DNA of 64,000 nt. Origin: Chrysomallon squamiferum (lineage: Eukaryota; Animalia; Mollusca). Positions 37,501-49,500 of this stretch are shown piece after piece. The stretch is taken from assembly GCA_012295275.1 (NCBI GenBank), contig CM022677.1, positions 20,708,001-20,772,000 of the forward strand. Direction: 5' to 3'. The notes below the pieces were generated by a model, which saw nothing but the letters and a program-made list of their open reading frames with translations, was not told where the DNA came from and searched no databases. The position numbers were made by a program, and so were the translations under genes. The stretch's first letter is position 1. Every line of letters begins with the position of its first letter.

Positions 37501-40500
37501 TCCTATATCAATACATATACACAGACATCACAGTTATTTTCTAGTGAATGGTGGGTGGATCGCATGGGTTAATGTGTCCGACATTTTCTGCTCTGTTACG
37601 TGTGAGAAAGGTTATCGGATAATAAACAGATGGAGAGTGTGCGCAAATCCGAAACCATCTAATGGCGGTAAAAAATGTGAAGGTCCTGAACACGACATTA
37701 TCACTATAGTTTGTTATGGAGGAGTACCCTGTGTTGGTAAGTTTCTCTCTGTTTTATGCTGTTTTTTTTTTTTTTGTTTTTAGTTATTTACTGCGATAAT
37801 TGTGTGTGTTTGGGTGGGTGTGTGTTTGTGTGTGGAAGGGATCTTGTGTTATTGTTGTTGTTATAATAAATAATAATAATAATAATAATAATATTTAGTT
37901 CGTTAGGAAGTTATTTTACAAATCAGTATGTGTTACTACTTTTGGCGTTTGATTACCTTTGTGAAAAATATTGGATCATAAAATTATTATTTGCAGTATT
38001 AGAGAAAAACTCCTGTGGATCCATTTATTAGATGACTGGACACCCACAGCATTATATCGGCTTTTTACATTTGTTGTTTTAGTCTGAAATTCTTTTTTTT
38101 TTCCTACGAAAATATTTGACTATTCCACGACCATCAGATTTAAAACTATAAATAGTATATTTGTTATAAAGTACATGTATCCTTATTTATTTATTTTCAT
38201 TTAAAAAAATGTTCTTTATCTATGTTTGTTTCTATCGATCAATCCATCTGTCTGTGTATCTATATTTACCTTCCTACCTATCAGTCTGTGTATAAGTCTA
38301 TGTGTACGTGTGTATGTCTGTTATTCTTTATGTTTCCATACGTACATATATACTCGATCTTTCTTCCTAATATCCAGCTTACCTATGTAAGTACGTAAGT
38401 TATTAAAACAATCTAATTTATACTTCTTTTTTTTGTTCGTTTTGTAGTTGTACTGTTTTTCTCTTTTTTTTTCTTTCTTTATACTTATTTATTTATTTAT
38501 ATTTATTTATTATCATCACTATTATTATTATTATTATTATTATTATTATTATTATTATTATTATTATTATTATTATTTATTTATCTATCTATCTAGCTAT
38601 CTAGCTATCTAGCTATCTATCTATCTGTTTTTTAGATCGGAGGGTGAACCGTTCTTTTGCAGGTAAGGAAAAAGACAAAGGATAATAGTTGTCAAAACTA
38701 CCTCAATAATCTGTACAATGCTTGAGTTCTAACATTCATGAAAAATGTAACAGTCATGATGAAGATGATGATGATGATGATGATGATGATGATAATAATA
38801 ATAATAATAATAATAATAAAAACAATAAAAGCGTGTACACTTTAGAATCTAATAATTTACTAATTACTATTTGTATACAGATAACCGCTGAAGCTATAGA
38901 CACTGACGAAGATAAGGAAACTGAAAACTATTATAAATGTTCTGACGAGAAACTAGTATTTATTTCAGTATAACAGTAATGTGTCGCCCATTCACCTATA
39001 CTTCAAAGCACATCTAACATTAATAACTTGAATGTAAATTATCTATTTATATAATATATATATATATATATATATATATATATATATATATATATATATA
39101 TATATTATATTATATTATATTTATTTATTTATTTATTTATTTATCTTTATCTCTTCTCATCAGCGGATACATCCAAGATCCAAACACATGTATTATTAAA
39201 AATCTTAAACCATATATATATATATATATATATATATATATATATATATATTAGATAGATAGATGCATAATTTACATTAAAGTTAGATGTGCTCTGATGT
39301 ATAGTTGAATGGGCAACGCATTCTGCACCTATGTAAGTATGTACGTTTTTATGTACATTCATCTATCTATCTATCTATCCATCTATTTATATATTTATTT
39401 ATTTATTACTGCATATTATTATTTTTTTTATTTAGGTCTAACAGGAAAAGATACAGACAGTGATCCAGGTAGGGATATCGACAAAGTAAACTGTCTATTA
39501 GTAATTCATTATATTTTAACATACATCTATATAACGTGTTTTATGTTACAATGCACGTATCATGTAAAAGTTATACATGAATAAACATCTTTTAGTATTA
39601 ATAACTGCCAAAGTTTTTTTTTTTTTGTTTACTGCATTTTTGTTTATTTTTATATTTATTTATTAATTATTTATTTGTTTATTTATTTATTTATTTATTT
39701 ATTTATTTATTTATTTATTTATTTATTTATTTATTTATTGTTACTATTATTACTAGTATTATTTTCAATACTATATATATCTATGTCTATCTATCTACGT
39801 GTTCTTCGTTAGGTAAGAAAAAACAAAGGAGAACATTTGTGAAAACTATCTCAATAATCTCCATGATACACAAGAGTTTGAACTTTCGTGAAAAATATAA
39901 TAATAATAATAACATTAGTAATAATAATAATAATAATAATAATAATAATAATAATAATAATAATAATAGCATAAGCGTGTAAATTTAAATATTATTCAAA
40001 CTAAAATACAGAAAGGGTCAGATATTTATTCTTTTTTTTTTTCATTCCTTTGAAAATTAAACGGAGGAAAAAGGAAAAAAAAAATCCTTGTTTTGAGGGA
40101 CCCATCCTTATTTTTTATTGATACTGAAATTAAATATTTTGTACTTAAATTTGATGGTCGATATATTCATAAATTCAACTGAGTACAGGAACATTTTAAT
40201 TCATTCAGTCCATAATTCTTTATTTACCAATAAAAACTACAAATAAAAGAAAAACAAAACAAAGCATGTATATTAAATCAATCAATCGTTCAATTAATAT
40301 GACTTTATTTATTTATTCACACATTTAGATACTAATTATTTATTCATTACTCTTTGTATAGAGATACGAGCTGAAGCTATAGACACTGACGAAGAAACGG
40401 AAAATGGTACAGTTAAACTGAACAATAATTATGAATTTTGTGAAGCAGACATTTATTTCAGTATAATAGAAATGTGTCGCCCATTCTCCTATACATCAAC

Positions 40501-46500: not shown

Positions 46501-49500
46501 ACAGAGGTCAGTGCTTCTGTCGGGATGTTAGGGTAGGGCATGTCTTGGTCATGTCGTCAAAAGTATTAAGTGGATTGATCATTTTCATTTGACAGGTCCA
46601 GTCAGAATAGCAAATTAACACGAGTTGTTTAAAAAAAAAAAAAAAAAAAAAAAAAAAAAGGAAAATAAAAAAATAACATATTTTCTGTTATAATTTAAAG
46701 CATAAATAATTTGAGAGCAAGAGAGAATAGTTAGAGAGATGGAGAGAGAGTAGAGAGAGAGAGAGAGAGAGAGAGAGAGAGAGAGAGAGAGAGAGAGAGA
46801 GAGAGAGAGAGAGAGAGAGAGAGAGAGAGAGAGAGAGAGAGAGAGAGAGAGAGCATAATCGATGAATGGTGAAAAGAAGGAAACTGAGAGCGTAAATAAA
46901 TATTTTGATTTTATATGTTACAGAAACGTGGAAAAGAATAGATGAAGGTAAAGAACATTCTTTCTTTAGCTGCAAGTAGAAGACATTTCGAATAACCCAG
47001 ACATACACACACAAATCCATCCAATACATGCAAACATTCATACGCAGCTAGATAGAGACATAAAGAAACTATGGATGAGATGGATCGAAAAAGGGAGAGA
47101 GAGATAGAGAGAGAGAGAGAGAGAGAGAGAGAGAGAGAGAGAGAGAGAGAGAGAGAGAGAGAGAGAGAGAGAGAGAGAGAGAGAGAGAGAGAGAGAGAGA
47201 CTGAAACCGATGAATGTTGAAAAGAAGGAAAATGAGAGCGTAAATAAATATTTTGATTTTATATGTTACAGATGAGAAGATTACAAGAGATGAACATGCA
47301 GGTAAAGAACATTTGTTTTATTATAAACATTAAGATTGATCAAATCTATTTTTGCTCCCTTTGTCATTGTGTTTTAACTGCTAGGACCTATTAGTAATAT
47401 TCTGTTATGGAAAAAACTCTCTAATGTACTGCAGTATGTTAAAGTGTACTGTATTTTCTGCTTTACTGCTACACATCATGCCGTATGATAGGATGTTTTA
47501 ATTTATTATGATTATTTCTTTATGTTTAGCCCTGAAGAAGTATTATCTTGCTATAGTACTGGGCATTCTTTTTGTAATGATGGGTATATTGATAACTCTC
47601 AGGTAAGCATACAACTTAGAGAAAATAAAGACAATATTATCAGATTAAATAATAGAGTCAGCTTCACAGGCAATACAGATATGAACCTACACATACATGT
47701 GTGTGTGTGTGTGTGTATATATATATAATTGCTCACAGAAACACACACACACACACACACACACACACTCACACACACATATAGATACACCCATTATAAA
47801 TCAATAAATACATTCTTAGAGATACACACACGTTATATATATATATATTTATATAGGTACCGAAAGCCTAGATGATATAATTTGTCTAAGCTGTAAAAAG
47901 TTAAGATTTTGTCCATGTTGCTCCACTCCCAAGTCTCTTCTATAAATATTACCATAAAAAAAAATACATGTAGCTAAAGATATTTATGTGCTCTTTTAAA
48001 TGGTGTTGTTGTTCTTGTTGTACGTTAAATCAGTTCTTTGTACGAGAGTGATAAACGCGTTGGGGGTAAACGCTTTTCGGTCCCCGTGGTCAGCAATTAA
48101 CAGCGCGGCGTAAAAAGTCCTAAAATAGGGTCGCTCTACAAACGCCTGGCTTGTTTTCGCCAAAATGGCTTCATTGTTATTTTTTAGCACAGGGCCAAAG
48201 TTGAATCTTTCTAACCGTGTGCATGTCGTCGCTGGCAATGGCTTATATCAAAAGTTGTGTCCAGAAATGTACTTTTCCATGACTACAAACCTATATTAAA
48301 AAAAAAAAAAAAAAAAAATAGCTGAAAATAAAATCTATGTTCACGGGATCAAAAGAAAGATCATTCAGTTACCTTTCAAACAATGTGCGACACTACGGTG
48401 TGTCTTCTTTGGCGAAAACAAGCTCCGCGTTTAAATGTAGCACGTGCTTAGCGAAATCGCATTCTGATATAAACGAATTAACATTGTTTTGACGATTACT
48501 ATCTTCCGTTTAAAACCGTCGATTATTTTTTTTTTCAAAATTCTTGCGATAGACGGCAATTAGGAATCCTTAGCATAACAAACTATACTACATAATGGAA
48601 CAATGCATTCAGAGGAATTGATGGAATGCTGACTAAACATCTAATAAATTTTTTTTTAAATATATATAAAATATAAATTGTTCAGCTTTAAAACATTATT
48701 TTTGCGTGTTGATAAGCTCTGTCAGAGAACATTTCAACAATGGTCAGATGATATGTAACTTTTGTTTGTTGTCAAATCATAGCAAGTACAAGCTAAGAAA
48801 AATGTTTTTATATTTGCTTCAAATGACAAACTTATAACACCTGTATCTTTAATTGCCTCTAGTCTCATGATTGCATACATTTTATTGTCCCTAATTAATA
48901 CCTGCTACATCTTTCTGGAGTTGACTCCAAGAATTATCTGTGTTTATGTATTGCAAAGGATTATGGTTAAACATCAAGTACTTGTAGACCTTTTAAGTAA
49001 CATTAATATATATATATATATATACACATCACAGTATCTTAAATTATTACTACCAGTTATTTAAAAGAGTGAAAATTGAAGATCTTTAGTCATTCTGCAG
49101 TGTGTCATTTTGAAGATTTTGGCATGCTTAGCATTGTATTGTGAACACACGTACAAACATACAGATCTGAAAAAGCTGAGCTCATTTAGCATGTTGGTTC
49201 CATCACTCCTGTTGATTTTCAGCCTTTTGTGTCAATTACTTTTCAAACTATGGTTGGCCAAAGTAGCCCTATCTGCTATTTAGCCAAAATAAAGGCTGAA
49301 AAGCAACCAAATACCAGTCGTATCGATTTGCATATATCTTCTTAACCGCTAGCGATAGAGTCATACTTTTTTATGTGTTTTCATTCTTTTTGCTACATCT
49401 TTCATTCTGTGATTTTATTAGTGTTTTTGTTTGTTTTGTTTTTTGTGAAATTAAAGTCAGAGAACATTTGCCTGTATATATTTATATATATATACACTTA

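Follow-up and report, generated by a model that had tools for sequence, protein, structure and literature searches.

Ten frame-preserving micro-exons that appear to have arisen by serial duplication encode a predicted membrane-proximal stalk in a clustered, receptor-like gene of the mollusc Chrysomallon squamiferum. To describe this array, we present here a computational analysis of 64,000 nucleotides (nt) of contig CM022677.1 (assembly GCA_012295275.1, positions 20,708,001 to 20,772,000), referred to below as the window. The array occupies positions 38636 to 47301 of the window and belongs to a gene that combines a leucine-rich repeat (LRR) domain, TSP1-like repeats, the stalk, a transmembrane (TM) segment, and a cytoplasmic tail. 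We consider it an even proposition that exon birth and death enlarged and diversified the stalk and that the majority of its exons enter most transcripts.

The micro-exon array and its host gene

The original prediction placed an array of at least ten micro-exons of 24 to 33 nt, six of them exactly 33 nt, between the last TSP1-like exon and the TM exon. All ten were recovered at the predicted places, with the predicted lengths and peptides. Each has a YAG acceptor, a G/GT donor, an open frame, phase 1-1, and a length divisible by three. The exons and the evidence for each are as follows.

38636..38662 (+), stalk micro-exon 1, 27 nt, family A, DRRVNRSFA; scan, shuffles, and gene model
39436..39468 (+), stalk micro-exon 2, 33 nt, family A, GLTGKDTDSDP; scan, shuffles, and gene model
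40727..40759 (+), stalk micro-exon 3, 33 nt, family A, DPTGQNTDFHE; scan, shuffles, and gene model
40936..40968 (+), stalk micro-exon 4, 33 nt, family A, DVQAHDIDTYK; scan, shuffles, and gene model
41184..41216 (+), stalk micro-exon 5, 33 nt, family A, EVPRQHLNTDR; scan, shuffles, and gene model
41465..41497 (+), stalk micro-exon 6, 33 nt, family A, DPEALGARSNY; scan, shuffles, and gene model
44674..44697 (+), stalk micro-exon 7, 24 nt, family B, DRWRRREE; scan and shuffles
45055..45087 (+), stalk micro-exon 8, 33 nt, family B, DYWNRREDYFS; scan, shuffles, and alignment
46924..46947 (+), stalk micro-exon 9, 24 nt, family B, ETWKRIDE; scan and shuffles, with a 3' end that matches the start of the RNA alignment before exon 10
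47272..47301 (+), stalk micro-exon 10, 30 nt, family B, DEKITRDEHA; covered by RNA contigs in two runs (depth arithmetic)

A plus-strand scan of 37737 to 47529, which imposed neither a length nor a frame condition, returned 14 candidates: the 10 listed exons, 3 whose lengths are not multiples of three, and 1 containing a stop. The same scan of the opposite strand returned one candidate. In 300 dinucleotide-preserving shuffles, the mean number of open candidates with lengths divisible by three was 0.3, and the highest was 2; counting candidates of every length, the mean was 1.6, and the highest was 7. The excess over shuffled sequence is large; the scan criteria were chosen after the exons were known and duplicated copies are not independent, so the excess gives no clean probability.

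With all ten exons included, the stalk is 101 residues long (303 nt), with 27 acidic and 18 basic residues and no Cys, and is probably a charged, unfolded spacer. A mucin-type stalk was ruled out, as Ser and Thr account for only 12 of the 101 residues. The stalk donors match the consensus as closely as the domain-exon donors do. Every stalk intron is at least 176 nt long, so steric exclusion between stalk exons is not expected. By length and phase arithmetic, any subset of the ten can be skipped in frame, as had been predicted. The associated proposal that skipping tunes charge holds as a possibility, with a modest effect only, the net charge per micro-exon ranging from +2 to -3. A (TC)48 tract at 41315 to 41410 is complementary to three downstream (AG)n tracts (44864 to 44985, 46752 to 46853, and 47106 to 47199) that precede family B exons. 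Pairing of these tracts could loop out exon blocks; such repeats are common all through the window.

The host gene model runs from 27071 to 49661 on the plus strand. After the LRR exon it has nine TSP1-like exons with six candidate linker micro-exons, then the stalk array of ten, and finally the TM exon and the tail. The exons flanking the array lie at the coordinates originally given for them.

27071..28529 (+), start codon, signal-peptide-like N terminus, and LRR domain in one exon (Pfam LRR_8, E = 1.8e-36)
28719..28876 (+), first TSP1-like exon, 158 nt, frameshifted as assembled; its paralog counterpart, 56122-56280, is 159 nt
29132..36672 (+), seven TSP1-like exons, starting at 29132, 29780, 30535, 32201, 33191, 35710, and 36490
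within 29132..36672 (+), five linker micro-exons of 15 to 30 nt among the TSP1-like exons, starting at 31406, 33920, 34326, 34966, and 35242
37058..37069 (+), candidate 12-nt linker micro-exon, from the gene model
37545..37736 (+), last TSP1-like exon, motif recognized by eye
47530..47602 (+), TM exon, phase 1-2, from the gene model and RNA contig cover
49538..49661 (+), last exon, encoding a 40-residue cytoplasmic tail and the stop, with RNA contig cover

The TSP1 label for the host repeats is a soft one. A PF00090 scan took in the seven host repeats between the first and the last and found TSP_1 matches in five of them at 13.3 to 20.5 bits, all under the 21.6-bit cutoff; the last repeat of the paralog passes it at 29.6 bits. 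A Tox-SGS match on one repeat (E = 0.094) was too weak and was taken as chance.

Duplication and divergence of exons and genes

The intron flanks divide the stalk exons into two families, A (exons 1 to 6) and B (exons 7 to 10), and alignment bore out the predicted sharing of sequence downstream of the donors. Self-comparison identified three pairs of duplicated blocks, 42858-44336/45228-46742 (88% identity), 44492-45230/46742-47444 (82%), and 40887-41319/41140-41601 (71%). The blocks carry exon and intron together, and their ends often fall at microsatellites. Serial duplication of the ten exons, followed by divergence of their cores as originally proposed, is supported by these patterns. The three decayed siblings reported in the original prediction were found again, and a fourth was added near 39800.

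38881..38911 (+), decayed sibling, 31 nt, with a shifted acceptor and AT in place of the donor
39800..39818 (+), decayed sibling of exon 1, with the exon body mostly deleted and AG directly before GTAAG
40362..40406 (+), possible eleventh exon or decayed sibling, lacking a donor after 33 nt but open over 45 nt if a weak GTACAG donor is used
42561..42576 (+), decayed sibling of exon 8 that has lost its 3' part together with its donor

Between exons 7 and 9, differences occupy 6 of 24 exon positions, compared with 8 of 208 positions in their flanks (p = 0.001). The excess of exon divergence over neighboring-intron divergence was significant in four of six pairs (7/9, 4/5, 5/6, and 4/6; the 5/6 comparison was ungapped). 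The proportion of non-synonymous differences (pN) exceeds that of synonymous differences (pS) in six of seven stalk-exon pairs, with few synonymous sites in each. On these alignments, the stalk exon cores are shown to change fast, and faster than the neighboring intron.

The process we favor would run as follows. Ten serially duplicated, frame-preserving micro-exons would form a charged stalk linking the last TSP1-like domain to the membrane, and unequal exchange at the flanking microsatellites would copy exon and intron as one unit. Phase symmetry would let copies come and go without a break in the frame; because it permits such gain and loss, the stalk would vary mainly between paralogs and alleles, with skipping a minor extra. 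The domain layout and the gene cluster suggest that the protein is a recognition or adhesion receptor of a birth-and-death family.

Four LRR-TSP1-like copies, the host among them, lie in the window, which also contains remnants. The LRR exons form two subfamilies, about 65% alike between them and at least 90% alike within each. They stand head-to-head, and the head-to-head arrangement is itself duplicated.

5710-7148 (-), LRR exon
22837-24276 (-), LRR exon
27071-28529 (+), LRR exon of the host
54410-55868 (+), LRR exon
8777-10337 and 51731-52204, remnants
13265-13224 (-), single 42-nt stalk exon of a complete minus-strand paralog, followed by its TM exon at 12865-12787 and its tail at 12330-12220
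31406-37069 (+), 58711-61984 (+), 21201-14531 (-), and 3678-581 (-), phase-1 linker micro-exons between TSP1-like exons in all four paralogs

Near 8901-9165 lies an orphan TSP1-like fragment that is frameshifted. The stalk-exon count differs tenfold within the cluster, from ten in the host to one in the minus-strand paralog. Homology of the family B exons to that single exon is suggestive only: both have Trp with charged residues and the same GTAAAG donor, in gapped alignments made without a control. The cytoplasmic tails of the two genes share an NPxF-like motif (NPAF in the host and NPDF in the paralog), which we take to resemble endocytosis motifs. The minus-strand paralog also carries a 1-nt frameshift, in its LRR exon (24276-22838, minus strand), so both complete genes of the window are frameshifted by 1 nt near the 5' end relative to a paralog. 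These frameshifts may be assembly indels, null alleles, or decay.

The linker micro-exons are mostly 30 nt long, and many have an AAG acceptor. Tandem duplication is seen for some of them, three times at 17582-21917 in units of 1.73 kb, and those of the two plus-strand genes differ at 8 of 105 sites, an intron-like rate. Because linker micro-exons occur in all four copies, tiny phase-1 exons seem to be a habit of the whole receptor family, beyond the stalk. A search for inverted repeats over 9000-26000 listed 25 of 1170 matches, all of them microsatellite pairs.

RNA coverage and alternative readings

RNA contigs were compared with 47200-50000, which takes in exon 10 together with the TM and last exons. 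The data were two RNA runs of one study (X1 and X2), a third sample of that study (X4), and a DNA-like run (X3). Words of the LRR exon were present in two RNA runs of one study, at fractions of 0.42 and 0.35. An X1 contig (702 letters, depth 15.8) and an X2 contig (399 letters, depth 3.86) each match the last exon with 3 differences. In both runs, the last-exon contig depths recur at 47277 and 47287, inside exon 10, and the bin depths correspond to 24 + 6 letters on that exon. The intron bins 47388-47481 and 47670-47763 have zero RNA depth in X1 and X2 and are covered in X3. The X1 TM bins are explained by the host contig together with paralog contigs (15.51 and 10.32 computed, versus 15.5 and 10.3 observed); among the X2 TM bins, 2.33 was matched, and 0.6 of 3.49 depth units in one bin is unaccounted for. 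This depth arithmetic makes splicing of exon 10 to the TM and last exons the most likely reading; the row for the joint was not among the matches listed (15 of 33).

The last intron contains a high-copy repeat at 47790-49450, where the X3 depth is in the thousands. Other paralogs are represented as well: in X1 and X2, contigs from at least two to four of their transcripts, whose TM and tail sequences have diverged, align to 47530-49842, at X1 depths of 8.85 to 39.4.

The 24 letters on exon 10 imply, by a single base, that the preceding exon ends in AG with a base other than C before it. Exons 9, 3, 4, and 5 fit this ending; the last TSP1-like exon does not. As exon 10 is covered in both X1 and X2, the form seen is not one in which the last TSP1-like exon joins the TM exon directly. 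Upstream of exon 10, the X1 contig continues without a break for 292 letters, and the other nine stalk exons would take 271. This run is compatible with full inclusion, without proving it, and mildly favors one dominant path.

The foremost alternative is a combinatorial splicing cassette, in which many exon subsets are used at substantial frequency, by tissue or genotype, and place the binding domains at many distances from the membrane. All ten exons are short and skippable in frame, and their diverged cores would give isoforms that differ in sequence. There are two published precedents: Botryllus schlosseri FF7, with 7 of 8 combinations of three exons that lie between its Sushi domain and its TM domain (PMC12582321), and SmVAL6 of Schistosoma mansoni, with 35 isoforms in 67 clones (PMC2270263). 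Against such a cassette, the donors are strong, and the X1 TM depth is fully accounted for by the paralog contigs and one host contig that spans the stalk end without a break. The X1 and X2 contigs over 47200-50000 showed no skipped form, although rare variants are lost in contigs. We regard widespread combinatorial use as possible and would hold to it only tentatively. A broader version would have three levels of diversification, namely domains that change fast from paralog to paralog, linker micro-exons that separate the domains, and a ten-exon stalk spliced into hundreds of forms, as an independent and larger parallel of Botryllus fester-family splicing; we think this unlikely.

Several observations weigh against growth by exon birth and death with most exons included. 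Of the stalk exons, the RNA comparison covers exon 10 only, and the 292 upstream letters fit other exon paths too. An unbroken contig does not exclude skipping, because contigs drop rare variants. X1 and X2 belong to the same study; in X4, the exons in 47200-50000 are not covered, which is no proof of absence. Botryllus FF receptors splice comparable exons in nearly all combinations (PMC12582321). The exon-intron contrast was not significant in two of six pairs (8/10 and 2/3), and the three significant family A pairs (4/5, 5/6, and 4/6) share exons. For exons 7 and 9, pN (0.25) is not above pS (0.27). Conserved introns could account for the contrast; because they would yield a similar one, positive selection on the stalk cores is not established. 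As assembled, the 1-nt frameshift in the first TSP1-like exon stops the host frame at residue 510 unless that exon is skipped.

This frameshift raises the alternative that the host is a transcribed, decaying copy, with no full-length protein and with micro-exons that drift without function. The frameshifted state of both complete genes, the orphan TSP1-like fragment, and the decayed stalk siblings are in its favor. So is the comparison of the seven intact TSP1-like exons with the paralog, which left out the frameshifted first exon and gave about equal values (pN 0.085, pS 0.064; the excess is not significant, p = 0.28). Opposed to decay, all ten strong-site stalk exons are open and divisible by three despite lengths of 24, 27, 30, and 33 nt, and the LRR exon appears from its differences with the close paralog to be under purifying selection (pN 0.049, pS 0.102). 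The host contig depth of 15.8 lies within the range of the paralog contigs. If the broken exon is skipped, a frame of 1220 residues stays open across all ten stalk exons, and the indel may be an assembly error or one (null) allele. Decay of the whole gene is improbable on balance. One of the seven TSP1-like exons tested, 35710-35898, differs from its paralog counterpart (62730-62918) by 24.5 non-synonymous and 1.5 synonymous changes (p = 0.074).

In Dscam-type clusters, one exon of the cluster is used per transcript. A mutually exclusive choice of this type, of one exon or one per family, would fit duplicated exons with common intron flanks, a paralog with a single stalk exon, and the possible pairing of the (TC)48 tract with the three (AG)n tracts downstream of it, but the introns are long enough for joint inclusion and the exon before exon 10 fits another stalk exon, making such a choice very unlikely.

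Known systems and significance

In the Botryllus schlosseri fester-family (FF) allorecognition receptors, 26 of 38 genes splice out one to three extracellular exons, and use within the family is genotype specific (PMC12582321). Like them, the C. squamiferum genes are clustered and encode predicted type I membrane proteins in which small in-frame exons separate the last ectodomain from the TM segment. The FF cluster varies in copy number; here, four LRR-TSP1-like genes and remnants lie in 64 kb of one assembly. The FF receptors carry Ig-like and Sushi domains, unlike the LRR and TSP1-like domains of the host, which is not a member of that family by domain content. FF splicing is documented and involves one to three exons, with several combinations expressed, whereas the ten live, serially duplicated exons here are known from sequence, and two samples from the same study show a single path at the 3' end.

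Mammalian T-cell receptor gamma constant (TRGC) genes offer a second likeness, as the number of stalk exons (connecting-region exon 2) differs between genes and alleles (PMC7349638) and stalk length varies by small-exon duplication. TRGC encodes a vertebrate Ig-family chain with one to three copies of the exon, unlike the ten copies, two families, and strongly diverged cores of the host.

The original prediction also invoked the micro-exon genes (MEGs) of Schistosoma mansoni, whose coding regions consist mostly of very small symmetric exons, with short products and proven skipping; the family is described in the sources as restricted to flatworms (PMC4350168, bioRxiv 2023.06.21.545858). The host resembles MEGs and SmVAL6 in its run of very small same-phase exons (10 of 10 divisible by three and phase 1-1) and in their fast change, and SmVAL6 in the joining of such a run to a folded domain. 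The likeness does not extend to membership: unlike MEGs, the host encodes a long, multidomain membrane protein in which micro-exons total 450 nt, or 12% of the modeled coding sequence, and not most of it. Its nearest named relatives are gastropod and brachiopod LRR proteins, and the micro-exon peptides themselves were not compared with MEGs.

The nearest full-length relatives of the LRR exon are from Haliotis (XP_071106136.1, XP_046362283.2, and XP_046362296.2), Babylonia (XP_076461505.1), and Lingula (XP_013411095.1). The named LRR-only relatives are 26 to 35% identical over nearly the whole exon and one further record is 42% identical; no protein in the collection searched exceeded 42% along the exon. 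These relatives point to a molluscan or closely allied origin. Unlike the host, most LRR-only relatives have 430 to 600 residues and a hydrophobic end tail (glycosylphosphatidylinositol-like by eye). A TSP1-like motif was found in none of 194 proteins compared, and the LRR-TSP1-stalk-TM layout was not found among them. Against longer proteins, the LRR exon gave only generic LRR matches (23 to 31% identity, 36 listed). A search with the cytoplasmic tail gave four candidates, none significant, and one with the paralog TSP1-like repeat gave no match; none of the three yielded a model of the host gene, and all three are weak negatives. The ESM Atlas returned generic LRR clusters only. A title- and abstract-level literature search, with few subscription papers, found no described molluscan case or LRR-TSP1 family. 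The host array is a real instance of a known stalk-exon design, and apparently one not described before.

For the question of how recognition is widened in invertebrates whose receptors are germline encoded, a ten-exon stalk in an apparently undescribed LRR-TSP1-like receptor cluster is a cheap test case of length variation by splicing versus gene-level birth and death. With at least 15 tiny exons per gene here, gene callers could miss them. If one form dominates, the array would be an ordinary, though large, case of stalk growth through exon duplication. The size of the array, its fast-changing cores, and its host family are what set this case apart as worth following up.

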